This document shows positions 47,522-64,000 of a stretch of 64,000 nt of DNA, in pieces. Positions within the stretch are counted from its first letter, which is position 1. Every line of letters begins with the position of its first letter. The notes under the pieces are model-generated. The model worked only from the letters and a program-made list of their open reading frames with translations, was not told the DNA's origin and did not search any database. Origin of the DNA: Patescibacteria group bacterium (GTDB lineage: Bacteria; Patescibacteriota; Minisyncoccia; Phycocordibacterales; UBA2100); the NCBI GenBank assembly GCA_038064835.1, contig JBBTSD010000001.1:28422-92421 (forward strand), given 5' to 3'. The position numbers were made by a program, and so were the translations under genes.

Positions 47522-48157
47522 ATGCAAATCGACATCATATTCAACATTGTCATCATTGTCTTCTCGGTAGTTATTCACGAGGTATCGCACGGCTACATGG
47601 CCAACTTTCTGGGAGATCCAACAGCCCGCCTCCAGGGCAGGCTGACACTCAATCCTATCAGCCACCTAGACCCTTTCGGATCGGTTATATTGCCACTCAT
47701 GCTCTCGCTCTCAAGCTCGCCACTTCTTTTCGGGTGGGCAAAGCCAGTCCCGTATAATCCCTACAATTTGCGGCGCGGGGGACTGTGGTCGGAGGCCTTG
47801 GTTGCTGGCGCTGGCCCTGCGTCAAACCTTGCCATCGCACTGATGTTCGCACTTTTCATTCGCATCGGTTCGAACATGGGTGTTTCTGAAAGCGTGCTCG
47901 CGCTGTCACTCATGGTGGTGGGTATCAATGTCATGTTGGCGCTGTTTAATCTCGTGCCGATTCCACCACTCGATGGCTCAAAAATTCTGTCGGCAATTTT
48001 GCCAAGAGGTATGGCGCAACGCTGGGAGGTGGTGCGTGTCCAGTTAGAGCAGAACCTGCTATTTGGGTTTGGGGCCGTCATTCTTTTTGTCATGTTGCTC
48101 GGTCCCTTGCTCGGAGGTACCGTGAGAAGTGTCGCGTATTTCCTTGCCGGTATATAA
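47522..48157 (+). CDS. Site-2 protease family (peptidase M50) membrane metalloprotease
   Basis: HEVSHGYMANFLGD ... NLVPIPPLDGSKIL (HExxH and LDG motifs) in a polytopic protein. Confidence 0.75.
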   Translation: MQIDIIFNIVIIVFSVVIHEVSHGYMANFLGDPTARLQGRLTLNPISHLDPFGSVILPLMLSLSSSPLLFGWAKPVPYNPYNLRRGGLWSEALVAGAGPASNLAIALMFALFIRIGSNMGVSESVLALSLMVVGINVMLALFNLVPIPPLDGSKILSAILPRGMAQRWEVVRVQLEQNLLFGFGAVILFVMLLGPLLGGTVRSVAYFLAGI

Positions 48158-48320: not shown

Positions 48321-48713
48321 ATGGTGCGCGTAAAGATTATAGTTGCTCTGGCACTTGCAGTACTTTTGGGCGGATTCGTACTTCTTTTGTACTTGGCGCA
48401 AAGCAATGTGGCGCACAGCGTTGCTATGACAGATGATATGCAGGTGGCAATCGTACTTACACCAACCGGATATGAACCAAAAGAAGTGCGTGTAAAAAAG
48501 GGAACAACCGTTTTGTTTACCACTACCATCGGACATGCACATTGGCCATCGTCGGATTTGCATCCGTCGCACATGATTTACGCCGAGTTTGATCCGAAAC
48601 GACCACTAAAATCCGACGAGGCTTGGAGCTTTGGTTTTGACAAAGTGGGTACCTGGGGATTTCACGATCATATACGCGCCTATTTCACCGGGGTTATTTA
48701 TGTCGAAGAATAG
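48321..48713 (+). CDS. Membrane-anchored cupredoxin-like fold protein lacking the Cys copper ligand
   Basis: YEPKEVRVKKGTTVLFTTTIGHAHWP...FGFDKVGTWGFHDHIRAYFTGVIYV resembles a cupredoxin beta-sandwich with H/D/H where C/H/M would be. Confidence 0.45.
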   Translation: MVRVKIIVALALAVLLGGFVLLLYLAQSNVAHSVAMTDDMQVAIVLTPTGYEPKEVRVKKGTTVLFTTTIGHAHWPSSDLHPSHMIYAEFDPKRPLKSDEAWSFGFDKVGTWGFHDHIRAYFTGVIYVEE

Positions 48714-49914
48714 AATTCTGTTCTCTGGCGCAGGATGCTTCTTGCTTCTGTGTCTTGGGTGGCTTGTTTGGTCGTTCTTGGTGTCAGTATCGTCAAATAA
48801 TATATCGGCAATCACAGCTTGTGCCCAGGAATTTACCGGTCAATCAGAGCGGATAAATTGCTGGTATCGGTTGATTGAAAAAGAAATCATCAAAGATGGT
48901 GTGCCCGCAGGTATGCATGCCTTCACCTACATATATGACAACTATCCAGACTTTGTTTCAACAGGATGCCATGTGCATGCCCACAAAGTGGGAGACATGG
49001 TTTATTACGGCGTCTACTTGGCCGATCCTCGGCTCGAGGCACTTGAGTATCCCGATTCACTCACTGCGTGCGGCTACGGATTTTTTCACGGGTTTCTTGA
49101 ACACCTAATCCAAGATCATCCGACAACAAAATTTGTCACAGAAACATGTGAGTGGATGAGTGAGCGTCTGGAGGAAAGAATGCCCGCGATACGCACCATT
49201 TGCTATCACGGTTCCGGACATGGTTTTACTCTCGCTCAGGTAGAAAAAGTACCACAGGCGCAGTGGGGCGATCTGATTGCTTTCACTAAAGACCCGCTTG
49301 AAAAATGCGACGCTCTTTCCGTGCCGAGAGAGATTGAGCGAGAGGAGTGTCGCGAAGGCGTGTTCAATGTACTTATCAATTGGGCAGAGGGAGGTGAGTA
49401 TGGGTTTTCGTTTAATCGCGATAACCCGCTTGTGATTTGTGATGCTTTCGAGAAAAAGTGGCGACACGCATGCTATTACGAGTTTTCGCAAAAGCTGGAC
49501 CATATTGCACGAAGAGATGTGATGGAATTATGGCGGGTGGCAAATAAAATCAAAGACAGAGATGAGGCATCTGTCGTATTTCGTGTGGCCATGGCGGGCG
49601 CGGTTCAACAGACTATTGCCGACGGTACTTATATCGGCCTCACAAAGAAGTGTCTTTTGGCCGGCCCTCAAGTGGAGAACATGTGTATTGAAAGTATTGT
49701 GAATGGCCTATTTGAGCACGGTTCTCCGCGGAAAGAGCATGATAAGGCTCTCGCGTTTTGTATGGAAGAGTGGCTGAATGATGCCCAACGCACTCAATGT
49801 TATACGGCGGTTGCGACGCGGCTCTTGCGATTTCATACCAGAGAAGATGCTGATGATGATTGCAGAGACTTTCCCAAAGAGTATCAAAGCATGTGCCTTA
49901 GGGCTCGCCCATAA
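48703..49914 (+). CDS. Membrane-anchored Cys/His-rich hypothetical protein; a paralog lies at 63449-64000
   Basis: ATG at 48703 overlaps the upstream stop by 11 nt; conserved CHVHAHKVG and CGYGFFHG blocks. Confidence 0.5.
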   Translation, partial: SKNRILFSGAGCFLLLCLGWLVWSFLVSVSSNNISAITACAQEFTGQSERINCWYRLIEKEIIKDGVPAGMHAFTYIYDNYPDFVSTGCHVHAHKVGDMVYYGVYLADPRLEALEYPDSLTACGYGFFHGFLEHLIQDHPTTKFVTETCEWMSERLEERMPAIRTICYHGSGHGFTLAQVEKVPQAQWGDLIAFTKDPLEKCDALSVPREIEREECREGVFNVLINWAEGGEYGFSFNRDNPLVICDAFEKKWRHACYYEFSQKLDHIARRDVMELWRVANKIKDRDEASVVFRVAMAGAVQQTIADGTYIGLTKKCLLAGPQVENMCIESIVNGLFEHGSPRKEHDKALAFCMEEWLNDAQRTQCYTAVATRLLRFHTREDADDDCRDFPKEYQSMCLRARP

Positions 49915-50003
49915 TGCGTCGTTGAACAATTGATTCACCCACATTACTTGCATTTATTGCCATGCCATAGTACGCTCTTCGGGCCTGAAAGGGCTTTTTT
50001 TAC

Positions 50004-50414
50004 ATGGCGACAATCAATCAACTCATAAAGAAAAACCGAAAGGACCCGGTGCGGCGTTCGCAGGTCATGGCACTCGGGCGCGGTTTTAATCGTCTCAAGA
50101 ATCGTCCGTCGTTCTACCCGTCTCCATTCAAGCGTGGTGTGTGCACCAAAGTAACCACCAAGACTCCTCGTAAGCCAAACTCTGCTATCCGCAAGATTGC
50201 GCGTGTGCGTTTGACAAACGGTATGGAAATCACCGCGTATATTCCTGGTGAAAAGCACACCCTGCAAGAGCACTCAGTGGTGTTGGTCCGCTCAGGTCGT
50301 GTTAAGGATGTTGGCTTGCGTTACACGGTTGTGCGTGGCAAGTTTGACGCCGCAGGTGTCGACGGGCGTCGTCGTGGCCGATCTCGCTATGGGGCCAAGA
50401 AGCCAAAGAAATAA
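50004..50414 (+). CDS. rpsL: 30S ribosomal protein S12
   Basis: [10 protein letters not shown]...[73 protein letters not shown]. Confidence 0.95.
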
Positions 50415-50438
50415 GGAAGTAAGGAATAAAAATAATAT

Positions 50439-50900
50439 ATGCGCCGACCATTTAAAAAGAAGCATCGAGCTACTCCCGACCCTGTTTACGGTTCTCTACT
50501 CGTTTCCAAGCTCACCAACTATGTAATGGAGCGCGGCAAGAAAGACACTGCTCGTCGCGTTGTATACGCTATGCTCGAAGATCTCAAGAAAGAAGGTGAC
50601 CCCATTACTATCCTCGAGACGGCTATCAAGAATGTTGAGCCGGCAATGGAGGTGCGATCTCGTCGTGTGGGAGGAGCAAACTACCAAGTGCCTACCCCAG
50701 TGCGTCCTGAACGCCAGCTGGCCCTCTCTCTTCGCTGGATTATCGGCGCCGCTCGCGCAAAGAAAGGGACTCCTCTCGCACAAAAACTTTCCACAGAAAT
50801 TCTCGCGGCTCACAAAGGAACCGGAGAAGCGGTCGGCAAGCGCGACAACATGCACAAGATGGCCGAGGCCAACAAGGCATTTGCACACTTTGCGTGGTAA
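50439..50900 (+). CDS. rpsG: 30S ribosomal protein S7
   Basis: Full-length uS7 match (…ANYQVPTPVRPERQLALSLRWIIGAARAKKG…). Confidence 0.95.
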   Translation: MRRPFKKKHRATPDPVYGSLLVSKLTNYVMERGKKDTARRVVYAMLEDLKKEGDPITILETAIKNVEPAMEVRSRRVGGANYQVPTPVRPERQLALSLRWIIGAARAKKGTPLAQKLSTEILAAHKGTGEAVGKRDNMHKMAEANKAFAHFAW

Positions 50901-50927
50901 TACCATCGCCACTAGTCGAACGCTTTA

Positions 50928-50951
50928 GACACCTTCTTTTTCTTTGGTGTC
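50928..50951. terminator. Hairpin (GACACC-ttctttttcttt-GGTGTC) between the rpsG stop and the converging SagB-like gene
   Basis: A 6-bp stem with a large pyrimidine loop; weak. Confidence 0.3.
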
Positions 50952-50962
50952 GACGGTAATGC

Positions 50963-51679
50963 TCACAATTGGGTGATTTCCTTTTGTCGGGCCGCCAGCG
51001 CTCCGTACACCACCAGCTCTTCTTGGGGATCAATATCAAGCACTTTTTCAATTGCCTGGTGGTCGAGGCCTCCGAACGGGCGCAGGCGCACTCCGAGCGC
51101 TGTAGCAACGAGCGCCATGTTTTGCATGATATGACCCGCTTCAAGGAGGGCGAGCGGATACGCGAAGTCGTGGTACTTGCGCGAAGATTTTTCAAGGGAG
51201 GCAGTTAGAAGTAGTACATTCGCTCCTTGCAAAGACTCTGTTCGCGAGACATATGTCTCGACTTTTTCTTGTGTGGACAACGCCCACAGATGCTCGAGAG
51301 CATGCACATCAGGCCGGTAGTGAAAAACTGCACGCTGGAGTGTCTCGACGGAAAATGCGAGTAGATATGCTTCAATAGGATAGTACCCACCCCCAGAGGG
51401 ATATGGACGGCGTTTTCGTTCCGTGAGCTTCATCGCTCCGCCGAGCAGGTGTGAGATGTCCGAAAAAGAGAGTGGTGCGCACGCGGAGGGCATATCAGAG
51501 TTTCTCAATTCGAGCGCTCTGAAGAGGGATACTTCTGGATCAGAGAGGTGGTCCATTGGTACGAGCTCCATGCGCTCGTATCTCTTTGCCAGGCGTGTCT
51601 CGTGCAGATGTGCTGTTCCATGTGTAAAACGGCTGTCTTGAAAGTGTTGATGTATTTCCCGGTAAAGATTGTGAGGCAT
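50963..51679 (-). CDS. SagB-type (McbC-like) FMN-dependent dehydrogenase of the nitroreductase superfamily
   Basis: KRRPYPSGGGYYPIEAYL is the hallmark motif of SagB-type dehydrogenases. The likely start is at 51679 (MPHNLYRE...), 7 nt downstream of the YcaO stop; the ORF track extends it to 51796. Confidence 0.75.
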   Translation of the reverse strand: MPHNLYREIHQHFQDSRFTHGTAHLHETRLAKRYERMELVPMDHLSDPEVSLFRALELRNSDMPSACAPLSFSDISHLLGGAMKLTERKRRPYPSGGGYYPIEAYLLAFSVETLQRAVFHYRPDVHALEHLWALSTQEKVETYVSRTESLQGANVLLLTASLEKSSRKYHDFAYPLALLEAGHIMQNMALVATALGVRLRPFGGLDHQAIEKVLDIDPQEELVVYGALAARQKEITQL

Positions 51680-51686
51680 GACAGAG

Positions 51687-53216
51687 TTATGCAAACGGAT
51701 GGGGCTCCTCGGCGAAAGGAGTTTCTCGTGGAGTGTATCCGAAAAGTTTTGGAATTTCAGTGAGACGCGCACCACCAAGACAGGGAAAACGCTCATTGAT
51801 ATGCAAAGGTTGTAACTCGGGAATCACGACGAATTCCACATGCCATGGTGTCGGATTTTTCGGGGAGATGCCGAGCGGGACAGAGGCGCATCCATACCCA
51901 CGCTCTGTGCACCACCCTACGATTCTATCCAGATGTTCGTCTTTGGTGTCGTGTTCCCACATGGCTTGTACGGGCTTTTCCAGCACTCCATTGGTGAGAA
52001 ATGCGAGGCGCGCCGCGCGTTTTGTATCCGTCCAATAAACCGCGCGCTCGAAATGCTTGATGCGATGTGGCACGATTGCATCTACGCTGTAGAGGTGCCG
52101 CCACGAAGAGCGAATATTTTTTCGAATACGAAGTGCCTCGCGTATCGCATGTGCGGCCGCTTCCGACAAGCGCGCATGTACGCCAAGCCCGAGTACGACA
52201 GGAACCCCGCCAGGAGCATCATCTCGGATGACAGCGCAGACAACATGCGCAGGTGCATCCGTAGGGAGCTTGATAATATCCGCACGCAGACGATAGCGCT
52301 CCATCCGTTGCAGTAACAGCGAGAGCTCATCGGACTTGTGTGCCAAATAATCGAGCGCGATGCGTGGGCAGGTGAGCTGATTAAGCCACATGATCATAAA
52401 CGCATCGCGCTCGATTATCTCGAGCGCACCATTAAGAAGTGCAAATTCCCGTGTTGGTCCGGTAGCGAGCCCTGTAGTAATTCTGGGTCGTAGCATCGGC
52501 TCTCGTTTTTCCTGGAGATACTTTCCACTTGAAGTGATTTGTGCGGGAATATACATACGTGCGTTTGTTTTAAGGCAACGACCTCTAACCCATGCAAATG
52601 CTGAATCATGCGGTACTGCGGTGGAGCGCTGTGCTCGTTGCGCCCTAGAAAAACCCGCAAAAGAGGAAATGGGGAGGTGTCGCTTCTTGGCCATATCTTG
52701 TTCTGTGCTCCAGCACAGGCCCTGCATGTGTTCGGTGTCATAGCGCCACAGGTGTCTCTCCAGACATTCGGCAAGGGCGGAAGCCAGCGCCTGCGGGTCA
52801 GATGTCGCTGAAGACCCGCCGGCCGCCTCGTCCTTCGCGAATTGCGCGCTCCATGCGTGCATGTGTGGCTCGTCAGGCATGTGGCCGGTTTGTCGAATAC
52901 CGAGAAGTATTCCAGCATCTTGAAGATTACGCACAATAGGGCGAAGCGGCAGCATGTCGCTCTGAGAAAGACGAGTGGCGTCGCGTACCAGCTCGGCTCC
53001 AAACGAAGCCTCAACAGACTCCGCAAATGCCGCCCGTGCTTTTTCGAACACATTTCCCGAACGATACTCTGTAACGACTCGAGATACAGAGCGAAGTGTC
53101 ATGAGGGGAGTATACCAATGGGCAGATATCGTCGAGCATTGACATATCTCCGTAGCGGTTGTGTTCCGCCGGTTGTGGACACGATACCCTGATACCATGA
53201 CGCCATCTTCCGCCAT
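51687..53216 (-). CDS. YcaO-domain protein (standalone cyclodehydratase-type YcaO with a C-terminal PxPxP-like tail)
   Basis: YcaO motifs ALAECLERHLW and TTGLATGPTREFALLNGALEIIERDAFMIMW; the C-terminus is ...EEPHPFA. Confidence 0.8.
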   Translation of the reverse strand: MAEDGVMVSGYRVHNRRNTTATEICQCSTISAHWYTPLMTLRSVSRVVTEYRSGNVFEKARAAFAESVEASFGAELVRDATRLSQSDMLPLRPIVRNLQDAGILLGIRQTGHMPDEPHMHAWSAQFAKDEAAGGSSATSDPQALASALAECLERHLWRYDTEHMQGLCWSTEQDMAKKRHLPISSFAGFSRAQRAQRSTAVPHDSAFAWVRGRCLKTNARMYIPAQITSSGKYLQEKREPMLRPRITTGLATGPTREFALLNGALEIIERDAFMIMWLNQLTCPRIALDYLAHKSDELSLLLQRMERYRLRADIIKLPTDAPAHVVCAVIRDDAPGGVPVVLGLGVHARLSEAAAHAIREALRIRKNIRSSWRHLYSVDAIVPHRIKHFERAVYWTDTKRAARLAFLTNGVLEKPVQAMWEHDTKDEHLDRIVGWCTERGYGCASVPLGISPKNPTPWHVEFVVIPELQPLHINERFPCLGGARLTEIPKLFGYTPRETPFAEEPHPFA

Positions 53217-56200
53217 GAACCCTGATTCTCAAAGAACAAAAGCGTACAAGATTTCCGCACACCAAGATTCTTTGGCCGGACGCCCCGGCAAGGACACTGG
53301 CGCGGATACCGACTTGATTACTTCTAAAAACGAATGGACGGTGGCTCTGGCACATGCGCGCGCGGTGATCGAAGCAGAACTCCTCGGGAAAAAGGCACCA
53401 CAGTTTCCTTTCTCAAAGGCGCCACAGTTCCTGAGCCCGGGTACGGCAGGGGTGTGTATATGGGTTGGGGGCTCTCTCCGGGGTTCGCATATAGTCGAAG
53501 GCGCACTTTTGGGGAATGCAGTGAGCGAATCGGCGGCACAAACAGTGCAAGACCCTCGATTCAAACCGATTGCGGAAGCGGATAGTAAAAACATGAGAGT
53601 ACAGGTGAGTCAGATTTCTTCTGTGTGGGTACGCATTGATCCACGCACCGGGACGCTCGCGCACAATAAAGGGTATGCACTCGTGCACGGAGGGAAGACA
53701 GGGTGGTTTCTTCCGGAGGTTTTTAGCATACGGACATTTACCAGTATTTCACAGTTGGCACGAGCGCTGGCACGAGAAAAGTTGCATCTTCCGGAGGAAG
53801 TTGCATTCGGGAAAGATACCGAGTTGTATACATTCGAAGTATACGAGGTGGTGGAGTCTATGTGCGAGTCCGAGCTGTCAGTGGGCGGTGCTCAGACATA
53901 CCCCGTGCATCTCGATGGTCCAATACCTCGCGAAGCTCGCACTGATCGCGAGAGCTCCATCTCTCGGATGGTAGCGTATGCGGTACGCTGTTGTAACGAG
54001 GACGGCAGTATCACCTGTGCGCTATCGGAAGGGATCGCAGACGCTCGCTACGAATGGGGGAGAGCATTTTTTTCAATTGCTGCCATGGCCGAATATGCGC
54101 GCACAGCACCCTCCGCACTAACCAAGGCGGCTCATCGTGCGTATCACTACCATCGGTCACATCTTTTTGGGAAGCGTGGCGCACATCTTCCGGACACAGC
54201 GCTTTTGTATGCATACCTGGGGCACGCGGCGCTTTCCTTCGGTTTTGTAGACGATGCGCGAATGTGTTCCGAATATATTAAGGGGGTGGTCGAACGGGAA
54301 AGATTTTCTCCGATACCGTTCGGTCAAGCGGCGAGTTTCCTAAGCAGAATGATTCTGGTAGGTCTGGATATAAAAGCGCATGCCGCGGCGTACTGCTTGG
54401 CAACTCTTGCGCGCCATTTCGAAGAGGATACAAACAAGTCGACAGCGTCATATGCAGAACTTGCCACGGCAAGTGCCATCTTCTACAAAGCAACACAGAG
54501 TGAATGGGCGCTCGGTCTTGCCCGCATGACAGCGCGGTGGCTCATGAGCGAACAACTTTCTGACGGAGCGTTTAGAGGTTCGCAGTCGAGCACATCTGCA
54601 TATACACGAGGTACGGGGAAGGTAATCGAAGCGCTCGCCGAATACGCCCGTTCGTGCCCGCTTTCAGAAGACGAGCGCGCTCGCGTCGTCACCGCTATGG
54701 GTCGTGGCGAATCGTGGATGATGCGCATGCAGTATTCTGCAGAGAGTAGCTTTGCGCTATCAAAAACCTTTCGAGAGAAAGTGCAGGGGGGATTTCGTCA
54801 CGACTACTTCAGCAAAGATGCATGGCTTGATGCAGTGTGGCACTTCCTGCTTTACAAAGCGCGCCGGGAAAGCAATGACGAAAAGCGAGCACATGGTCAT
54901 CAGACGATAGAATTCTTGCCTCTGCGAAATGCCCCGCGTTTTTTTAAGGAGCACGGCGAAGATTCGCGTCTTCGCACCGACAAGTACGCTGCTCTGGGGT
55001 GGGCGTTCATGAAGAAGCTGGGTGTGGGGTCTGCAATTGAAAAATTATCCACTCGAGAGCTTCTGGATGCGTGGACAATTCTGCGACGAGCGCGCATCAC
55101 AGAGAGTGAGGTTGCGCACACTATGCGGTACATGGCGTTTCCGGACACGCCTGGATTTTTTGCGTGCCACCCAACTCTTTCCTATGAGCCTGGAAGCACC
55201 GACGGGAGGACAAAACAGCGCAGGTATGCTCATGGATTCAGTGAATCGTGGGAGCGCGCACTCGCACAGTCAGTGGGAGAAATGTATGAACGGTACTTTC
55301 TCTCGCTGTATAAGAGCAACGAGTTGCGCCTTGCGTCGGTAAATGAACTAAAGGCTGATCATGTGGCGCATCTCGACCCAGCATATCTGACTCGGCTTTC
55401 CGAATCACAAGTCAAGGCTCTCGGCTCTCGATCGTGGGACGAGAGTGTGCCGTTGCGCTGGGTGGAAGGAGTGCGGGTGAGTTCAGGCAAGAAAGTGCTT
55501 ATTCCTGCGCAACTCGTGTTTTGGAATTACTCGTGTGCGAATGACGAGGCAAGACTCTGCGAGAGCAATTCCAGCGGTCTGGGGGCAGCGGGAAGCTCTG
55601 CGGGGGCGCTTCTTGCCGGGCTACATGAAGTGTTGGAGCGGGATGCTTTTCTTGCGCACTGGCTCACTAAAACACCGCTAGAGCGCATTACTCTTGCGAG
55701 CGTGCCCGGAGAGAAATGTGCGCGCTTTGTCGACCGCGCGCGAAAGCATGGGGTTCGCATGAGTTTGTTTCGAGCAGGAACGACGGGAGGTATTGATGCA
55801 TTCTATGCGCTTCTTGAAGACGAGAGAGGTCGAGGAAATCCGCGTGTGGTGCTTGGCGGTTCCTGCAAATCGAATCCTGTGGCCGCGATTGAACGCGCCC
55901 TCGAGGAAGTGTGGTCAATATATTTCGCTGTGCGCGCAGAAGAGAAAGGCTCGTATGAACTGCTGGCCGAAGATTATGTGCCGTTCAAGAGCCCGCTTGC
56001 CATAGGCAAACGAGTGTCACTCTGGTCTCACCAAGATACCGCTCCTGAAATCTCCTTTCTTCTAAAAGTAAAAGAGCAAGACTTTAGTGTACCCTCGCGT
56101 ACTGGTACCAGGAACGCACATGAAGAGCTCCTCACAACTGTGGAAGACATTGAAAAGCAAGGGGTCGGCTACGAGGTGTTTGCGTACCATGCGGTGCACC

Positions 56201-56385
56201 CACTTCTCGCAGAGGCGGGGATATTTGCGACGCGCGTGATAGTCCCGGCGCTCATACCGCTCTACTATAGTGAACACATGGCACCGACACTGCTTACACA
56301 TCGACTTGCGCAGTGGAGCGCACAACAGGGTTTTGGGGACAAAAAGTGCGCTATTTCCAATGTGTTTCCACACCCGTACCCGTGA
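53161..56385 (+). CDS. 1074-aa fusion: AMMECR1-like N-domain (Cys->Ser in LRGCIG) + ~450-aa alpha-helical region + C-terminal YcaO domain ending PHPYP
   Basis: AMMECR1-like GVCIWVGGSLRGSHIVEGALLGNAVSESAAQTVQDPRFKPIAEAD...RVQVSQISS; YcaO motifs VGEMYERYFL and SSGLGAAGSSAGALLAGLHEVLERDAFLAHW. The true start is probably an internal ATG (~53197 or 53215), because the annotated 5' end overlaps the divergent YcaO gene. Confidence 0.75.
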   Translation: MFRRLWTRYPDTMTPSSAMNPDSQRTKAYKISAHQDSLAGRPGKDTGADTDLITSKNEWTVALAHARAVIEAELLGKKAPQFPFSKAPQFLSPGTAGVCIWVGGSLRGSHIVEGALLGNAVSESAAQTVQDPRFKPIAEADSKNMRVQVSQISSVWVRIDPRTGTLAHNKGYALVHGGKTGWFLPEVFSIRTFTSISQLARALAREKLHLPEEVAFGKDTELYTFEVYEVVESMCESELSVGGAQTYPVHLDGPIPREARTDRESSISRMVAYAVRCCNEDGSITCALSEGIADARYEWGRAFFSIAAMAEYARTAPSALTKAAHRAYHYHRSHLFGKRGAHLPDTALLYAYLGHAALSFGFVDDARMCSEYIKGVVERERFSPIPFGQAASFLSRMILVGLDIKAHAAAYCLATLARHFEEDTNKSTASYAELATASAIFYKATQSEWALGLARMTARWLMSEQLSDGAFRGSQSSTSAYTRGTGKVIEALAEYARSCPLSEDERARVVTAMGRGESWMMRMQYSAESSFALSKTFREKVQGGFRHDYFSKDAWLDAVWHFLLYKARRESNDEKRAHGHQTIEFLPLRNAPRFFKEHGEDSRLRTDKYAALGWAFMKKLGVGSAIEKLSTRELLDAWTILRRARITESEVAHTMRYMAFPDTPGFFACHPTLSYEPGSTDGRTKQRRYAHGFSESWERALAQSVGEMYERYFLSLYKSNELRLASVNELKADHVAHLDPAYLTRLSESQVKALGSRSWDESVPLRWVEGVRVSSGKKVLIPAQLVFWNYSCANDEARLCESNSSGLGAAGSSAGALLAGLHEVLERDAFLAHWLTKTPLERITLASVPGEKCARFVDRARKHGVRMSLFRAGTTGGIDAFYALLEDERGRGNPRVVLGGSCKSNPVAAIERALEEVWSIYFAVRAEEKGSYELLAEDYVPFKSPLAIGKRVSLWSHQDTAPEISFLLKVKEQDFSVPSRTGTRNAHEELLTTVEDIEKQGVGYEVFAYHAVHPLLAEAGIFATRVIVPALIPLYYSEHMAPTLLTHRLAQWSAQQGFGDKKCAISNVFPHPYP

Positions 56386-56470
56386 GACCTTTTCTAAAGT
56401 TCGTACACAACTTGTTGCGCAGATTTCAATTACATAGCGACACGCTGTTTATCCACACAGACAGTCAAGA

Positions 56471-56947
56471 GTGTTCGGAACGCGGTACTATGTGTGCATG
56501 GTTGCGGTCCAAGTATCAAAAGATTTTTTGAGGCGGGCTGGGTATGCGCTTTTGGTAATACTCGGTGTGGGTTTATCGTTAGGCGCCCTCTTGTTCCCTC
56601 GCGCATCCGGCACTTCACACGGGCTGACTGGAAAGGACACAGCCCATGCGGATGTCCCTGGTTGCGGAGGGGGAGGATGCGCTGAATCATGTGGTAGCTC
56701 ATGTGGTAGCTCATGCGACAGTTCATGCGACAGTTCATGCTCGTCATGCACGGCGTGTAGCACGGATGGGGGGTGTGATTCAGGGTGTTCATGTGATTGT
56801 GGTTGTGCTGGTGGGTGTGGAGGGGACTGTTCTGGTGGGTGTAGCGATGGGTGTGGCTCGGCTGATGGGTGTGGCTCGGCTGATGGGTGCGGGTGTGGAT
56901 GCTCCGAAGGTGGTGGAGGAGGTGAGGGCGAAGGAGAGGGCGCTTAG
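56471..56947 (+). CDS. Putative RiPP (TOMM-type) precursor: hydrophobic or signal-like leader + ~95-aa Cys/Ser/Gly/Asp-rich core (25+ Cys)
   Basis: The core is GCGGGGCAESCGSSCGSSCDSSCDSSCSSCTACSTDGGCDSGCSCDCGCAGGCGGDCSGGCSDGCGSADGCGSADGCGCGCSEGGGGGEGEGEGA. The alternative ATG is at 56498 (MVAVQVSKDFLRRAGYALLVILGVGLSLGALLF...). It sits immediately downstream of the YcaO fusion gene. Confidence 0.6.
   Translation: MFGTRYYVCMVAVQVSKDFLRRAGYALLVILGVGLSLGALLFPRASGTSHGLTGKDTAHADVPGCGGGGCAESCGSSCGSSCDSSCDSSCSSCTACSTDGGCDSGCSCDCGCAGGCGGDCSGGCSDGCGSADGCGSADGCGCGCSEGGGGGEGEGEGA
56686..56900 (+). repeat. Short in-frame tandem nucleotide repeats (12-18 nt units) inside the precursor core
   Basis: TCATGTGGTAGC x2, TCATGCGACAGT x2, GATGGGTGTGGCTCGGCT x2 plus a partial copy; these encode SCGS/SCDS/DGCGSA repeats. 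Confidence 0.7.
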
Positions 56948-56982
56948 TTAGCTTACGCCAAAAATTTCACTACACTAAATAT

Positions 56983-58104
56983 ATGCAAGCAGAAAGTTTG
57001 AAATCAATATATCGGGGAGTTTTCATAATCGCTTTTCTCGCAGTTTCTGTGGTCGCCTTCTATGTTCAATACGAGTTAAAAGGACAGAGTGCGATGTCTA
57101 AGGAGGAAATCCGCGGGGCAGAAGAGCTCGCGCTTCGTGGCCAATATGATAAGGCACTTGCGATGGCTCGGAATACAGCCAGTGCCGCCTCGGACCCTCG
57201 CAGTATCTTTGACGCGCGACTCACGGCCATATTTTCTGCTTTTATGGGAGGGGATACTGACGCCAGGCTTGCAGCTGTGCGAGTCGCGAAAGAGCAGTAT
57301 GCGATTGCCGCCGAGCCGCGTGAGCGCTCATACATAATCGGTATGCTCATTGGTTTTATTACAATAGATAGAAACCCAAAAGTGTTCGGAGAGGTATTTT
57401 CAGGAGATATCTTTGGCGCACTTCGCGCAAAAGATGGAGATCCTTTGGTTTCTCTAAAGAATCTTGCAGAGCTTTCTATAGTCGAAAACCCAACATCAGG
57501 AGCATATCTCCAGATAGCGACGCTCGACGCCGCTCGTATTCTAGGCGCCAAAGCTCTCAAGCTTAGCAAGGAAGATCGGCAAGCCCATGCTAAAAACATA
57601 CTCACATTGCTCGAATCCGCGGCGGCTGTTTTTTCCGATGAGCGCACGCATATTCCCCGTACACTCTTCGGCAAGCTTCAGTTCGCGAGTTACTACAGCC
57701 GGACAGGATATCTGTACGGTGCGGTGGCACTAGTTATCCCTGATTATTTCAAGCAATCGGAGGAGGCGTATCAGACGCTCTATGCACTTCGCGCAAAAGA
57801 AGAGGGTGGGAAGCAAGGCCTGATTTCGTCATGGGTTCCTCATGCGTATCTCAATCATGCACTGTATCTTGATTCGGTCGGGGGTGTTTCTAGGCGCGGA
57901 GATATGCAAGAAGTACTCAGCTCGCTGGTTGGTTTAGTGCAAGCCGATCGGGCTGTGCACGAAAAATCCTTCCTGGGTTTCTTGCGCAACGCGAAAGAAA
58001 TGGAAGCGAAGTATGGTTCGTATGACGCCAAGAACCTACGCCACCTTGCGACCTTATCTCCAGAGCTCAAAGATTTCCTAGTCCAAGAAGGGTGGATATT
58101 CTAA
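56983..58104 (+). CDS. Membrane-anchored alpha-helical hypothetical protein; last gene of the inserted island
   Basis: N-terminal TM (VFIIAFLAVSVVAFYV); the remainder is predicted helical; no family recognised. Confidence 0.5.
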   Translation: MQAESLKSIYRGVFIIAFLAVSVVAFYVQYELKGQSAMSKEEIRGAEELALRGQYDKALAMARNTASAASDPRSIFDARLTAIFSAFMGGDTDARLAAVRVAKEQYAIAAEPRERSYIIGMLIGFITIDRNPKVFGEVFSGDIFGALRAKDGDPLVSLKNLAELSIVENPTSGAYLQIATLDAARILGAKALKLSKEDRQAHAKNILTLLESAAAVFSDERTHIPRTLFGKLQFASYYSRTGYLYGAVALVIPDYFKQSEEAYQTLYALRAKEEGGKQGLISSWVPHAYLNHALYLDSVGGVSRRGDMQEVLSSLVGLVQADRAVHEKSFLGFLRNAKEMEAKYGSYDAKNLRHLATLSPELKDFLVQEGWIF

Positions 58105-58126
58105 AAGTATCCTGCGCGATTATTTT

Positions 58127-58154
58127 TTGCAATTACGCTGTAGTCTGTTATAGT
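58127..58154 (+). promoter_or_regulatory. Sigma70-like promoter (TTGCAA-16 nt-TATAGT) upstream of fusA, followed by a small UUCG-loop hairpin + T-run (58160-58185)
   Basis: Hexamers seen directly; it would give fusA its own promoter downstream of the insertion. Confidence 0.3.
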
Positions 58155-58208
58155 TCGGTGGTCGCTTCGGCGGTTTTTATTTTAACTAAGTATCTGTTTT
58201 ATTCCCCT

Positions 58209-60353
58209 ATGAATCGAGATTATCCACTGGAGAGGGTGCGCAACTTCGGCATCATCGCACACATCGACGCGGGCAAGACCACCACCTCTGAGCGTATTCT
58301 CTTTTACACGGGTGAATCTCATAAAATCGGTGAAGTGCACGACGGTAACACCGTGACCGACTGGATGGAACAGGAGCGCGAACGAGGTATCACGATTACC
58401 GCCGCCGCAATCACTTGTTTCTGGAATCCTTCGTACATGGGCACCGACCTCTCATTCAAACATCGTTTCAATATCATCGATACTCCAGGCCACATCGACT
58501 TCACTTCTGAAGTACAACGATCAATGCGCGTCCTCGACGGCGCGATTGTCGTGTTTGACGGTGTTGCTGGTGTAGAGCCACAGACCGAGACCAACTGGCG
58601 CTACGCCGAAGATGCAAAAGTACCCCGTCTTTGTTTCGTGAATAAGCTTGACCGCACAGGCGCATCTTTTGATAAATCGTTTGGCATGATTCGCGAGCGG
58701 CTGTCGAAAAACGCGGTGCGTATGCAAATTCCTATTGGCGAAGAAGATGCGCTTGAAGGCGTCATTAATCTTATAGATATGCAGGCGTTTCGTTTTGAGG
58801 GAGACAAGGGGCGCGTCGTCATTCCTATGCCGGTACCCGAATCTCACAAAGCAGAGGCAGAGAAGTACCGTGCCGAACTCATCGAAGCGATCGTCGAGCA
58901 CGACGAGGTGCTTATGACAGGATACCTTGAGGGGAAGGAACCGACCGTCCCTGTGCTTAAAGCCACGCTCAGGAAGGCAGTTATCGAAAATAAAATCTTC
59001 CCCACCTTCTGTGGTTCCGCACTTAAAAATGTTGGAGTCCAGCTGGTCCTTGATGGTGTTGTGGACTACCTCCCGACACCGCTTGACCTTCCGCCAGCAA
59101 AGGGAATCCATCCTGATACAGGCGAAGTGATCGAACGCAAACCAGCCGACTCTGAGCCATTCTCTGCGCTTATTTTTAAACTCCAGACTGACCCGTTTGT
59201 AGGTCAGCTCTCATTCTTTCGCGTATATTCAGGTCAACTAGAGGTGGGAAGCTATGTCTACAATGCATCAAATGGCACCAAGGAGCGTGTTGGCCGTATG
59301 GTTCGCCTCCAGGCCGACAAACGAGAAGAAATAAAAAAGGTGTTCACTGGTGAAATCGCGGCACTCTTGGGCGCAAAGGATGCCAAGATTGGGCACACCA
59401 TTTGTGATGAAAAGAATCCAATAATTCTCGAAGAGATTAAATTCCGTCAGCCAGTTCTCTCTGCTCGTATTGAGCCAAAGACCAAGGGCGATCAAGAAAA
59501 GATGGGTATGGCATTAGCAAAACTTTCCGACGAAGATCCAACATTCCGTATTCGCAGTGACGAGGAAACAGGCGACACCATCGTGTCCGGTATGGGCGAG
59601 CTCCATCTCGATATCATTGTTGATCGGATGCGTCGCGAGTTTGGCGTTGAGGCAACACTCGGCAAGCCGCAAGTCGCTTACCGCGAGACCATTCAGGGTA
59701 GTGCTGAAGTTGAAAATAAATACATCAAGCAGACCGGAGGTCGCGGGCAGTACGGCCATGTCAAAATTCGCGTCAAACCACTCGAGCCATTGGTGGAAGG
59801 CAAGAAGATTCCTGCAAATACGACTCGTGAAGACCACTTTGAGTTCATTAATACCGTTAAAGGAGGCGCAATTCCTCAGGAATATATTCCTGCTGTCGAG
59901 AAGGGTATTCGTGAAGCGCTTGAGCGCGGAGTCCTTGCGGGTTATCCGGTTGTCGATGTCTCTGTCGAGTTGTTTGACGGGTCGTTTCATGAAGTCGACT
60001 CATCCGAAATTGCCTTCAAGATTGCCGGTTCCATGGCGTTTCAGGAGGCTGCACGACAGGCACGACTTGCGCTCCTTGAGCCAATTATGAAAATCGAAGT
60101 TGTTACCCCGGACAAATTCATGGGCGATGTTACGGGTAATCTCAATGGCAAGCGCGGACAAGTACAATCTATCGACGATCGCTCAGGCGGCCTCAAAGTT
60201 ATTATTGCGCATGTACCGCTCTCTGAAATGTTTGGGTACACCACAGCACTTCGTTCGATGACTGAAGGCCGTGCGACATCCATGATGGAATTCGATCATT
60301 ATGCAACGGTACCAAAGAATGTAGCAGATGAGGTTGTTGCAAGTAGAAAGTAG
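58209..60353 (+). CDS. fusA: Elongation factor G
   Basis: MNRDYPLERVRNFGIIAHIDAGKTTTSERILFYTG...; full-length EF-G. The ORF track opens at 58092; the true ATG is at 58209. Confidence 0.95.
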   Translation: MNRDYPLERVRNFGIIAHIDAGKTTTSERILFYTGESHKIGEVHDGNTVTDWMEQERERGITITAAAITCFWNPSYMGTDLSFKHRFNIIDTPGHIDFTSEVQRSMRVLDGAIVVFDGVAGVEPQTETNWRYAEDAKVPRLCFVNKLDRTGASFDKSFGMIRERLSKNAVRMQIPIGEEDALEGVINLIDMQAFRFEGDKGRVVIPMPVPESHKAEAEKYRAELIEAIVEHDEVLMTGYLEGKEPTVPVLKATLRKAVIENKIFPTFCGSALKNVGVQLVLDGVVDYLPTPLDLPPAKGIHPDTGEVIERKPADSEPFSALIFKLQTDPFVGQLSFFRVYSGQLEVGSYVYNASNGTKERVGRMVRLQADKREEIKKVFTGEIAALLGAKDAKIGHTICDEKNPIILEEIKFRQPVLSARIEPKTKGDQEKMGMALAKLSDEDPTFRIRSDEETGDTIVSGMGELHLDIIVDRMRREFGVEATLGKPQVAYRETIQGSAEVENKYIKQTGGRGQYGHVKIRVKPLEPLVEGKKIPANTTREDHFEFINTVKGGAIPQEYIPAVEKGIREALERGVLAGYPVVDVSVELFDGSFHEVDSSEIAFKIAGSMAFQEAARQARLALLEPIMKIEVVTPDKFMGDVTGNLNGKRGQVQSIDDRSGGLKVIIAHVPLSEMFGYTTALRSMTEGRATSMMEFDHYATVPKNVADEVVASRK

Positions 60354-60370
60354 TAATGTGAAAGAGACAA

Positions 60371-61999
60371 CTACGGTGTTGCCGTGGTGATGCAATGCAG
60401 AGCGTTATTAAAGGTCGGGACATAGGTCCGGCTCGTCTCTTGATCATACAAAATCTTGCCAACAATCCTTTCTGGGAACTGGATGTGACCTAGTTCTTTT
60501 CCTGTTGTAGGGTCGATTTTGTACAAGACACCGTCGTTCGAACCTATAAACAACGAACCCTTGATGAGGGCAGGGCTACTAAAGATTCTCCCGCGTGTCA
60601 AAAATTTCCAATGCAGTTTTTTATGCACGGTGTCGTAGGAGTAGACAAACTTATCGAGTGAGTTGATGAATAGTGTATCGCCAGTCCATAGTGGGGTGGA
60701 GTATATCGCCTCGAGTGTTTCAAATGTATCTGAGATGGCTAGAGTCTTGGTGTCAATAATATGACACTTCTTGTCGAATGCTCCGAAGGCGACTTTCGAT
60801 CCATCAGATTTTTCTGCAAACGATGCACGAATCGGCGCGCCGATAGTATGCTCCTGTAGTTGTTCGCCTGTTTTCGCACGGTACATTCGGACAATCCCAT
60901 CATTAGAGCCACAGAAGAGCAGATTATTTTTTTCAGACACATAGGGAGAGCAGTGGGTAAGACCGGTGTGCTGACCACGCCACCGTTCTTCTCCTGTCTC
61001 TGGGTCAAGTGCTACAACGGCGCCTCGTTTTTTCCAGAGACCAAATTCGAGACCAATGTACAGTAGGTTATTTTTTGTGGAAACGGCAGGAGAAGATCCG
61101 ATCCAGTCAGCATCCATAAATACCCACTTTGTTTTGCCTGTTTTTGCATCGAGTGCGTACAGATTGCCGTCGTACGCACCAAAGTACACGATATCGTTGA
61201 ATACCAGGGGTGAAGAATAGATCATTTTCCCCTTGTCTCCAAAACGGACCGTGTGGGTCCAGAGAGTAGAACCGTTTTGTTTATTGATACAGTAAAATAC
61301 GCCCGAATCAGTACCAAAAAGTAATGTGTCCCCATGCATTACCGGTGTCGACTTGGGGACAACATTTTTGTAATTCACTGAGGTGGGAGAAGTGGTGAAT
61401 GTCCAATGATGGGTAAATGGGAGTGGTTGTAGCTCGCGTACATTTTCAAAATTCCTGACACCCAACGACTCTTGGAAATCGTTGAGTTCGAAAAGGGTGA
61501 CAAGGCGGATGCCATTTTGTGTCAGAAAATCGTAAAACGAAGTATCTCGGAAACGCACAAGGCAAAAAATTGCCTCGACCTGCAATCCCGCCTCCCGCAA
61601 TGTGGCGATCTGCTTCTCTACAGACTTCCCGCTATTCAAAATGTCGTCTACCAGAATGATGGGCTCTTGTGTAGGTGATCCTTCAATGGACTTGTGTAAG
61701 TCGTGTTTCTTCCTGCCTTTGCGTATAAAAAGACCATTTGCCCTAATGTTGCGTGTTTCAGCAGAAAAAACCAGGGTGGTCAAAAGAGGGATGGATGCTG
61801 ATTCAAGGCCGCATACTTGGAGGGTTTGCTTGTCTGGAAACGCCTCGAAAAAAGCCGTCGCATATACATCCATAAATTCCTTCGTCATGCTGACATTTCG
61901 AAAATCAAAAATCCATCGCTCCTCGCCTGTGTCTTGGAACCGTGAAAAAGTCTTTTGCTCAATCAGTTTCTTTAATGCCGCATGTCGTGGAGAGCTCAT
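60371..61999 (-). CDS. Fusion of a type-I phosphoribosyltransferase-like domain and a PQQ-like beta-propeller repeat domain
   Basis: PRPP-binding-like EPIILVDDILNSGKS; the C-terminal half has repeated G.LYALDA.TGK..W / ALDPETGEERW PQQ-type blades. Confidence 0.55.
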   Translation of the reverse strand: MSSPRHAALKKLIEQKTFSRFQDTGEERWIFDFRNVSMTKEFMDVYATAFFEAFPDKQTLQVCGLESASIPLLTTLVFSAETRNIRANGLFIRKGRKKHDLHKSIEGSPTQEPIILVDDILNSGKSVEKQIATLREAGLQVEAIFCLVRFRDTSFYDFLTQNGIRLVTLFELNDFQESLGVRNFENVRELQPLPFTHHWTFTTSPTSVNYKNVVPKSTPVMHGDTLLFGTDSGVFYCINKQNGSTLWTHTVRFGDKGKMIYSSPLVFNDIVYFGAYDGNLYALDAKTGKTKWVFMDADWIGSSPAVSTKNNLLYIGLEFGLWKKRGAVVALDPETGEERWRGQHTGLTHCSPYVSEKNNLLFCGSNDGIVRMYRAKTGEQLQEHTIGAPIRASFAEKSDGSKVAFGAFDKKCHIIDTKTLAISDTFETLEAIYSTPLWTGDTLFINSLDKFVYSYDTVHKKLHWKFLTRGRIFSSPALIKGSLFIGSNDGVLYKIDPTTGKELGHIQFPERIVGKILYDQETSRTYVPTFNNALHCITTATP

Positions 62000-63492
62000 T
62001 GTCTTTTGAAGGTTGCGTACAGCACTGCGCTACAGGCACCCAGGATCGATAGAATCCACAAAAGCCAATATCCCGATACCAGGTTCTCAAGGAGTTTTTC
62101 GTTTTTTATAAGGTCGGGAGAGACTTTTATCTGCGGGCTGATATCGTACGCAAATCCATTTTTAAATATGGGGGTATCAAGGACCTGGGCGTTGTCGGTA
62201 CGAATCCATTCGTTATGTGCAAATGGACGATATTCGAGGACACACACATCCTCAACATCAACAATCCTTTCATATTTCTCACCGTTGATGGAGTGGTCGA
62301 ATGTCCATGAAATTCGCGCAACAGAGTCGTCCCGCATGCATTTTGTTTTCAGGGGGAACCAGTAGCGATAGGGGTCGCAGCGATTATTGGCGACATGATT
62401 TTCTCGAGCAAGGACAATTGGCTCGGTGTTGCCAGTGCTATAGACAGTGGCTTTCGAGAAGCATTGATGGTTTGCTTCAAACATGTACATGCCGTAGTAG
62501 TTTCCCTCAAGTGTTTTTTTCTGATCTCCAGGGATAAGGATCCCCGTGAGTTGCCCCGCCAATAAGAAAAGAAGGAATAGGTACCCGAGTAAAGTATTCC
62601 GCGTTATTCTTTTAATGTGGAAGTGTCCCTGTTGTGAAAACAAGATAAAGAGGGCGGGGATCGAGATTGCGATATAGCGGTAGTTCACAATAATACCCGA
62701 ATAGATGTGGAAGAGGAGGAAATAGGTGAGCGCAGCGGTCTGAAGCAGCCTTCTATTTGAGAGAAGGAACCAGCTACCAACCATTTGCATCACGATCACG
62801 ATATTCGTAAAGAAGGGAAGAATTGCATGATTAAACAAGGGTGCTCCGGTAAAGAGCGAGTTGAAGTAGTTGGCAAAAATCCAGCCACCATCAATTTTTA
62901 TACTTGAGGCCAATACATACAGAAATACAAAAGTGATTTTTGCAAAATACTCTTTTTCGCGCATGAACAGCCATACGAATGCGAGCGCCATGTCGTAATA
63001 ATCAAAATTTCCTGTCAGGCCATAGGTAAAGAAAAATCCGACGATTACTTTCCAGATAAGACAGGAAAGGATGACGACATGAGCAGAAGTCCAATCCTTG
63101 CGGTATGCCGCATAGACACCGTAGCTTAAGGCGAGGAATAGGAGTAGGTAGAATGCGCTCTGACTGTATCCATAGGGAAGTGACTCGAGAAAAAGGTATT
63201 CGCCACAGGATGGAAAATATGGTGGGCAGACATGGAGGCCATTTTGATAAGTAGAGATGCTAATGAAATTCTTTTCAACCCACCCGAAAAAAGTAATGAA
63301 AAAAGAGAGACTTAGAGCATAAAAGAGTAGCTGAAGGACAGGGCTACTTTCAATCTCCTGAATAGCAAAGAACTGGTAATATCTTCTCTTTAAATTGAAC
63401 ACCATGAGTATGATAGTATAGGCAAGTCGTCCCTCAAGCAAAGTGCCTATGCTTAGTCGAAAAGAAGTTGCATTTATACTACTGGTCATCAT
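61996..63492 (-). CDS. Polytopic integral membrane protein (~10 TM) with a C-terminal soluble Cys-containing domain; possibly HTTM/VKGC-like (unverified)
   Basis: A long hydrophobic N-terminal two-thirds; no motif confirmed. The start may be an internal Met (~63408), because the annotated 5' end overlaps the divergent gene. Confidence 0.45.
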   Translation of the reverse strand: MMTSSINATSFRLSIGTLLEGRLAYTIILMVFNLKRRYYQFFAIQEIESSPVLQLLFYALSLSFFITFFGWVEKNFISISTYQNGLHVCPPYFPSCGEYLFLESLPYGYSQSAFYLLLFLALSYGVYAAYRKDWTSAHVVILSCLIWKVIVGFFFTYGLTGNFDYYDMALAFVWLFMREKEYFAKITFVFLYVLASSIKIDGGWIFANYFNSLFTGAPLFNHAILPFFTNIVIVMQMVGSWFLLSNRRLLQTAALTYFLLFHIYSGIIVNYRYIAISIPALFILFSQQGHFHIKRITRNTLLGYLFLLFLLAGQLTGILIPGDQKKTLEGNYYGMYMFEANHQCFSKATVYSTGNTEPIVLARENHVANNRCDPYRYWFPLKTKCMRDDSVARISWTFDHSINGEKYERIVDVEDVCVLEYRPFAHNEWIRTDNAQVLDTPIFKNGFAYDISPQIKVSPDLIKNEKLLENLVSGYWLLWILSILGACSAVLYATFKRQ

Positions 63493-64000
63493 CTCGTCTT
63501 TTGCAGGTCACCAGTATGTCCAAGAGCTACGGACAAAGAACATAGCAGATTTCTACACCATCATCGAAAACCAAGAGAAGATTAAGGATGATGTTCCGAT
63601 CACTCCTGAAGACTTCTCAGCAATTCAACAGTGCGGGAGGGTTGCAAAAAGTAGCGGCGCCAGCATGGAAGAGTGCGCGCGTGATTTTTATGATAAGTAC
63701 ACCATGAAGCACGGTGGAGAGGCGGCATTTGCGCACCTGGCTCGACTCCAAAAGGAGCATCCCGATCTACTGCCAAGTTGCCATTACATCTCCCATGGTA
63801 TTGGGCATGCAGTTTTGCGCCAGAATAATAACGACCCTTACAAAGCTTTTGCTTTTATGCAGTCAGGAGGATATTTCAAGAATGTAGTTACCTGCGGGAA
63901 CGGCTTTTTCCACGGTGTTATCGAAGAAATTGCAAAAAAAATTAAGGACAAAGATCAGCTTGTTGAGGTGTTGGGTTCTGTATGCGCAAATGAGAAGATA
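63449..64000 (+). CDS. 3'-partial gene: membrane-anchored Cys/His-rich protein, paralog of the 48703-49914 gene
   Basis: I translated frame 63449 by hand: MLSRKEVAFILLVIISSFAGHQ...SCHYISHGIGHAV...TCGNGFFHGVIEEI..., which parallels CHVHAHKVG...CGYGFFHGFLEHL. It runs off the window end and is not in the ORF track. Confidence 0.4.
   Translation, partial: MLSRKEVAFILLVIISSFAGHQYVQELRTKNIADFYTIIENQEKIKDDVPITPEDFSAIQQCGRVAKSSGASMEECARDFYDKYTMKHGGEAAFAHLARLQKEHPDLLPSCHYISHGIGHAVLRQNNNDPYKAFAFMQSGGYFKNVVTCGNGFFHGVIEEIAKKIKDKDQLVEVLGSVCANEKI

Follow-up and report, generated by a model that had tools for sequence, protein, structure and literature searches.

The window, by which we mean the whole stretch of 64,000 nucleotides analysed here, derives from an uncultured Patescibacteria (CPR) bacterium, and comparison with related sequences indicates that the small cysteine-rich peptide encoded in it is the product of a real gene and one of a family of small CPR proteins that had not been named before. 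The gene lies among those for YcaO and SagB-type enzymes, and on balance it seems probable that the peptide is a TOMM/LAP-type precursor that would be modified in the cytoplasm, exported by the Sec route and cut after an A-H-A sequence. The genomes of CPR/Patescibacteria are tiny and hold few recognisable biosynthetic genes, and a conserved multi-gene peptide-modification system, here duplicated inside the str operon, is likely to be important for the CPR lifestyle.

In the favoured model, the peptide of 149 residues would be synthesised in the cytoplasm, where ATP-dependent YcaO proteins (a fusion protein, a second copy, or both) would convert Cys and possibly Ser or Thr residues of its tail into azolines, with the segment from the hydrophobic helix to the A-x-A-D motif as the likely recognition sequence. 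A SagB-type flavoprotein would oxidise these azolines to azoles. Since YcaO enzymes need ATP, the modification must precede export. The n-region and the hydrophobic helix would act as a Sec-type signal, so that the anionic tail is translocated with the N-terminus inside and the C-terminus outside; a cut between A51 and D52 after A-H-A, most simply by signal peptidase I, would yield a polyanionic, azole-rich peptide of 98 residues outside the cell. The TPR-like membrane protein encoded just downstream could be its partner in the membrane, whether as chaperone, dock or receptor. We infer these chemical and cell-biological steps, including the heterocyclisation of the tail itself, from the genes and their arrangement. 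RiPP precursors that carry a Sec signal peptide and are modified ahead of export have a precedent in the bufferins (PMC11626156) as well as in the DAG-RiPPs (PMC13056109).

Build of the peptide and its relatives

The open reading frame, taken from its GTG, occupies 56471..56947 (+) and encodes 158 residues, as the preliminary description had it. That description left the start undecided between this GTG and an ATG at 56498. Both codons are present on the forward strand, and the ATG is the likely start because the proteins of relatives begin 3-19 residues ahead of the hydrophobic helix; the precursor gene would then span 56498..56947 (+), with 149 codons and a stop, and the GTG at 56471 stands as an alternative that adds nine residues. 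The product opens with a predicted Sec-type signal or anchor (56498..56596, +), made up of an n-region (residues 1-14, net charge +2) and an h-region (residues 15-33, GYALLVILGVGLSLGALLF). A linker of 15 residues (PRASGTSHGLTGKDT; 56597..56641, +) spaces the helix from the motif A-H-A-D (A49, A51 and D52; 56642..56653, +), which is of the A-x-A-D form invariant in the family alignment (A2) and after whose A51 cleavage is predicted. The remainder, D52 to A149 (56651..56944, +), is the anionic core or tail of 98 residues with 22 Cys and 21 Ser/Thr. Around the gene, promoter and terminator searches gave no signal above shuffled expectation; no Rfam family was found in 50000-64000 and no tRNA within the 64-kb window.

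Relatives were reached through the neighbouring protein of 1074 residues, the YcaO fusion: its homologues were collected, their contigs read, and an alignment-based scan was then run over one genome per species. A first genome scan with the fusion protein as single query had no match; the alignment-based scan returned 24 loci, almost all in Patescibacteria MAGs. A small open reading frame of the same build lies beside YcaO/SagB homologues, on the strand of the enzyme genes, in at least 15 loci from divergent Patescibacteria, and small proteins of this build are encoded in at least 22 related CPR loci. Shared among them are an N-terminus rich in K/R, a hydrophobic helix about 19-20 residues long, a linker of 9-33 residues, the motif [A/V]-x-A-D and a low-complexity tail of G, S, D, E and C that is strongly anionic and almost without basic residues. 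A search with a leader profile recovered 14 database proteins, all named "hypothetical" and without Pfam domains, and when 1.84 billion cluster representatives were searched with a profile, 117 proteins emerged at E <= 1e-3, nearly all of 64-133 residues and aligned from residue 1. The success of the profile depended on relatives derived from synteny, a single-sequence query having been fruitless. Together, the transmembrane helix, [A/V]-x-A-D and the anionic tail provide a mining signature for a precursor family that has neither a Pfam nor an NCBIfam model.

The earlier suggestion that the peptide is a substrate of the flanking YcaO and SagB genes, with the chemistry itself inferred, gains support from the synteny in at least 15 loci and from loci that were reached from the peptide profile alone. 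One of the latter (L041) reads propeller, SagB, YcaO, peptide and TPR-like partner, and marine loci (L037-39) read YcaO, SagB, partner and peptide. The myxobacterial-type locus L025 has no recognisable family peptide. The same genome encodes a second family member, P0020, of 101 residues with the motif TASADVPGG and one Cys, whose gene lies 743 nt past the window end (window 64743..65048 by extrapolation; L034 8001-8306). It is flanked by a gene for 410 residues that starts at window 63449, a TPR-partner paralogue of 424 residues and a gene for 400 residues; further out lie PemK, tuf, rpsJ and another PRTase-propeller gene. In two other members, P0095 and P0123, the tail contains an intein-like domain of the Hint/PT-HINT type (Pfam E 4e-9 and 8e-13), which in P0095 has Cys-rich tail sequence on both sides.

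A charged n-region followed by a hydrophobic helix is present in all 22 + 101 family members analysed. The net charge of the n-region is typically +3 or +4 in the family, against +2 here, and the h-region has a mean Kyte-Doolittle hydropathy of 2.22 over 19 residues, within the family range of 1.7-2.8 over 19-20 residues. Charge, hydrophobic length and the anionic tail together predict the N-in/C-out orientation. The arginine pair ahead of the helix had been read as part of a Sec- or Tat-like signal or a membrane anchor. The Tat consensus is S/T-R-R-x-F-L-K. The n-region reads FLRRAGY, which does not fit that consensus, and relatives are K-rich without RR; a Tat signal is thus rejected in favour of a Sec-type one.

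Among the 116 of the 117 representatives used for motif and Cys statistics, the motif is A-x-A-D in 101 and V-x-A-D in 15; position -1 is Ala in 116 of 116, position +1 is Asp in all, and position -2 is variable. Signal peptidase I is known to favour small residues at -3 and -1, a rule that [A/V]-x-A-D at this boundary fits as far as the sequences go. A typical signal-peptide c-region runs for about 3-9 residues from the h-region to the cleavage site. The helix-to-motif linker, at 15 residues here and 9-33 across the family (median 16), exceeds this, so that another protease, or no cleavage at all, is possible.

This spacing also bears on the leading alternative. The precursor role and the enzymes could be the same and the peptide never cleaved, the helix serving as a permanent signal-anchor and the azole-modified polyanionic tail being displayed at the surface beside the TPR-like partner. 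The long hydrophobic stretch (19-20 residues, hydropathy 1.7-2.8) and the 9-33 residues between helix and A-x-A site would suit such an anchor, as would a conserved TPR-like partner that is itself membrane-anchored. However, invariant residues at -1 (A) and +1 (D), with A or V at -3, exactly at the boundary of leader and tail resemble a processing site and would be needless in a pure anchor, which makes permanent anchoring unlikely, if the least unlikely of the alternatives.

Conservation of the leader against variability of the core, which had been proposed as something to look for in relatives, is what was found in one clade: leaders align gap-free at 76% identity, and tails at 56% identity with about 12 gap columns. 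The linker between helix and motif is well conserved within clades, which makes it the natural candidate for enzyme recognition, a role we put forward from this pattern.

Tail, enzymes and gene neighbourhood

The 98 residues after A-H-A comprise 32 Gly, 22 Cys, 19 Ser, 10 Asp, 6 Ala, 5 Glu, 2 Thr, 1 Val and 1 Pro, so that 85% are G, C, S or D, and there is no Lys, Arg or His. TRF found perfect repeats at 56687-56715 (12 nt x2.4), 56711-56740 (12 nt x2.5) and 56846-56889 (18 nt x2.4), and these three arrays within the tail are the only repeats scoring >=50 in the whole window. The two adjoining 12-nt arrays (56687..56740, +), with the units TCATGTGGTAGC and TCATGCGACAGT, encode SCGS and SCDS, and the 18-nt array (56846..56889, +) encodes DGCGSA. 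Composition and repeat search thus bear out the core of Cys, Ser, Gly and Asp with in-frame 12- and 18-nt repeats that the preliminary description reported, and show that it did not arise by chance. The perfect repeats point to units with Cys having expanded recently, and in frame, in this copy, and a tail of 98 residues with perfect duplications accords with the slippage it proposed; the gene has the same sequence in the assemblies of two sequencing runs, so that no copy-number polymorphism is seen.

The dense core of CGSSC-type repeats is peculiar to the window copy, which is the family's extreme in Cys content: the 116 representatives reach 10 Cys at most, and the copy here has 22. Family tails have a median of 36 residues with 2-3 Cys, often with G-D-C near the end, and typical members have 1-5 Cys. 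Some (L010, L018 and P0020) have 0-1, so that conversion of Cys to thiazole cannot cover the whole family.

Given such a tail, the peptide might instead be an unmodified, secreted, acidic Cys-rich protein of the metallothionein kind, its adjacency to YcaO and SagB being functionally meaningless. With 22 Cys, 15 Asp/Glu and no basic residues it would bind metals unmodified, and neither the peptide nor the TPR-like partner matches a curated family. However, most family members, with their 1-5 Cys, have too few for a metallothionein; the synteny with YcaO, SagB and partners is kept in more than 20 loci of divergent lineages, and two loci found from the peptide alone keep it too. We therefore regard this explanation as quite improbable and return to a precursor acted on by its neighbours.

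Three genes encode the putative modifying enzymes. The fusion of AMMECR1, an (alpha/alpha)6 barrel and YcaO lies at 53161..56385 (+), where the longest open reading frame has 1074 residues (1056 from the public start at 53215) and ends in PHPYP; a second YcaO lies at 51687..53216 (-), with 509 residues in the longest open reading frame and 471 in the public call, and ends in PHPFA; and a SagB-family FMN dehydrogenase of the nitroreductase fold (Pfam PF00881; TIGR03605) lies at 50963..51796 (-). Pfam YcaO matches the fusion with E 5.5e-49 and the second copy with 1e-42. Of the NCBIfam models, TOMM_cyclo_SagD matches both best (E 1e-53 and 1e-55, where the thioamidation model reaches 1e-18), at 180-187 bits and hence under the curated cut-off of 219, and the similarity to solved YcaOs of the azoline or thioamide type is remote (E 1e-5 to 1e-7). 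The dehydrogenase scores 112.9 bits against the curated SagB model TIGR03605 (cut-off 78.4), and such a SagB-type dehydrogenase is kept beside YcaO in most loci. Studies on azoline-forming YcaOs have established PxPxP as their canonical C-terminal motif (PMC12338566). In 19 loci the C-terminus of the system's YcaO is P-H-P-F-P or a near variant of it, 15 of the 19 being exactly PHPFP; in the window, the fusion has the motif (PHPYP) and the second YcaO an imperfect version of it (PHPFA). Several features of a TOMM/LAP cluster are thus present: an adjoining YcaO, PxPxP, a SagB-type dehydrogenase, and a leader followed by a Cys/Ser/Thr-rich core. Searches with Pfam and NCBIfam found no E1-like or Ocin-ThiF-like (RRE) partner in any neighbouring gene, and the position usual for the E1-like partner is taken by the AMMECR1-(alpha/alpha)6 barrel protein; an RRE may be hidden in the N-terminal extensions.

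The same observations leave some room for the YcaOs to perform another backbone chemistry (thioamide or amidine) or to act on another substrate, for instance a nearby ribosomal or translation protein. The YcaOs fall under the TOMM cut-off and weakly match the McrA-thioamidation model, an E1-like partner is lacking, and the genes are embedded here in the rpsL-rpsG-fusA-tuf operon. On the other side stand a bona fide SagB-type dehydrogenase conserved beside YcaO and the C-terminus typical of azoline formers; no TfuA was found, and in other genomes the cluster lies elsewhere, away from ribosomal genes. We give such alternatives little credence, and azole formation on the peptide remains the preferred reading of the enzymes.

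Many loci encode the AMMECR1-barrel protein and YcaO in two neighbouring genes, and the two are fused in the window and in P0002; adjacency elsewhere and fusion here make a Rosetta-stone argument for joint action. In alignments A1/A4 the stand-alone AMMECR1-barrel proteins carry about 100 additional N-terminal residues that the YcaO-fused versions lack, and this region could be a peptide-binding module.

Starting 35 nt past the peptide stop, at 56983..58104 (+), is the gene for the membrane-anchored, all-alpha TPR-like partner of 373 residues. An iterated HMM places its family in 22 loci, where the gene almost always follows that of the peptide directly. In the protein, an N-terminal transmembrane helix is followed by a TPR motif within an all-alpha body, and a conserved PEFKxFLxxLGW motif lies at the C-terminus, with no invariant residues of catalytic appearance. 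Searches of Pfam and NCBIfam gave no hit, and an AF2 single-sequence model (pLDDT 56.5) was too poor for a fold search. A PRTase-like domain fused to a PQQ-type beta-propeller is encoded at 60371..61999 (-) as a conserved neighbour of the AMMECR1-barrel gene; its homologues adjoin that gene in at least 16 loci, and one is also present in L041. A polytopic membrane protein of 498 residues (61996..63492, -) is possibly part of the system: it had no hit in Pfam or PDB, and its homologue of 57% identity in another MAG (L040, 2-475) is encoded directly upstream of the pair of peptide and TPR-like partner.

The RiPP-like genes interrupt the str operon (rpsL, rpsG, fusA, tuf, rpsJ) over window 50004..60353 and in L034, with insertions at both the rpsG-fusA and the fusA-tuf junction. 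Membrane-anchored paralogues of 400-427 residues flank the system (window 48631..49914, +, and 63449..64000, +; L034 9669-10871) and were not found in the other loci. A gene for an M50 (site-2 protease-like) peptidase of 211 residues lies at 47522..48157 (+), 3 kb upstream of rpsL; as a protease for the leader or its transmembrane helix it was left out, not being conserved in other loci. The first 24 kb of the window are filled by a giant open reading frame of at least 8109 residues (34..24363, +).

Relation to known systems

As in the microcin B17 (McbA-BCD), streptolysin S (SagA-BCD) and heterocycloanthracin systems, a small precursor with a Gly/Ser/Cys-rich core stands beside a PxPxP YcaO and a SagB/McbC-type dehydrogenase, and a conserved leader with a variable core is likewise a trait of classical TOMM/LAP precursors. 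The differences are several. The classical leader is soluble, whereas the one here is a Sec-type signal or anchor that carries an [A/V]-x-A|D site; searches detected neither an E1-like/RRE partner nor a dedicated protease or ABC exporter in the system, and its partners are the AMMECR1-(alpha/alpha)6 barrel, the TPR-like membrane protein and the PRTase-propeller. Also, the tails are strongly anionic, and the peptide matched none of the curated bacteriocin precursor models of Pfam and NCBIfam, heterocycloanthracin/sonorensin among them.

It should be noted that "LAP" clusters have been counted in CPR before. Sharrar et al. (2020; PMC7298704) describe a Microgenomates YcaO and nitroreductase with a putative precursor of 84 residues, list from genome mining 110 "LAP" clusters in 93 CPR genomes, 51 Parcubacteria included, and propose that a peptidase removes the leader; later surveys confine themselves to counts of YcaO clusters in CPR. 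The "LAP" clusters so reported are very likely of the same broad kind as the window cluster, and the cluster kind is therefore already known at the antiSMASH level. A signal-type leader, A-x-A-D and AMMECR1-barrel, TPR or propeller partners find no mention in the text of that paper. Our literature search found no report combining YcaO with AMMECR1, and no description of a signal-peptide-type leader for a YcaO RiPP or of this family's cleavage motif and partner proteins. As far as that search goes, what is new here is the signal-type leader, the cleavage motif and the partner set; the CPR LAP clusters as such were known.

The closest parallel in export logic is offered by the bufferins (PMC11626156), where cytoplasmic modification turns Cys residues into heterocycles, the N-terminus of the product is set by the signal peptidase site, and the product acts outside the cytoplasm. 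Unlike here, MNIO/DUF2063 enzymes, which are unrelated to YcaO and SagB, make 5-thiooxazoles in that system, and bufferins fold as small proteins, whereas the tails of the present family are of low complexity. Bufferins are RiPP metallophores; metal binding by the window peptide is a conjecture. In sum, the enzymology is TOMM-like, the leader and export logic bufferin-like, and the partner set new. Should the model hold, Sec-routed RiPP maturation would extend from MNIO systems (bufferins and DAG-RiPPs) to YcaO chemistry.

More broadly, and tentatively, Patescibacteria might harbour a widespread undescribed class of YcaO-dependent RiPPs in which a Sec signal-anchor with [A/V]-x-A|D replaces the leader, protease and transporter, and the AMMECR1-barrel replaces the E1-like partner, though we hold the case for such a class to be short of even. 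The products would then be polyanionic azole peptides, either secreted or kept at the surface, with a TPR membrane protein dedicated to them, and they might act in metal handling or in host interaction of episymbionts. If this is true, the AMMECR1 domain gains its first biochemical context, as a YcaO partner, and AMMECR1 and the PRTase-propeller protein are linked to a testable pathway.

Reading frame of the peptide gene

Four of the six frames stay open across the tail region, so that openness alone is uninformative on the coding frame and the relatives decide. Public gene calls place the gene in the other forward frame (window 56652..56951), as a V/H/A-rich "hypothetical protein" of 99-101 residues, a call seen in three assemblies (GCA_964361175.1 and two Logan assemblies). 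It is through this wrong-frame annotation that protein databases lack the Cys-frame peptide, which explains why exact look-ups of its product from either start had no match, why a homology search with the peptide as a single sequence was empty, and why Pfam and NCBIfam gave no match above threshold. In Pfam there was no hit at all, and in NCBIfam the single match was TIGR04117 (E 0.0042, 17.2 bits), whose Cys-Xaa-Xaa-Xaa repeat radical SAM targets also have Cys-rich repeats; membership was rejected, the score being far under the cut-off of 50 bits with no radical SAM gene nearby, and the likeness is compositional only.

The leader and the A-x-A-D motif, conserved in relatives, are continuous with the Cys frame alone, and because this build recurs in relatives the Cys frame is the conserved coding frame. 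The preliminary description had stated that loss of this frame in related genomes, or conservation of an antisense one, would count against it: the frame is conserved, and the antisense His-rich frames do exist but fail as the true coding frame on comparison with relatives. That the product is really the V/H/A-rich protein or an antisense His-rich one is therefore exceedingly improbable, for although gene callers chose the other forward frame in three assemblies and four of six frames are open across the repeats, homologues of the alternative frames are lacking, the conserved leader continues into the Cys frame only, and the Cys-frame architecture recurs in 117 clusters.

The gene is a concrete case of a real gene lost from public annotation where a low-complexity repeat is open in several frames. 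Two contigs that carry the closest homologue of the fusion YcaO end inside the G/E-repeat tail of a homologous peptide (L004, 13222-13446, and L005, 7964-8188), which suggests that such repeats break short-read assemblies.
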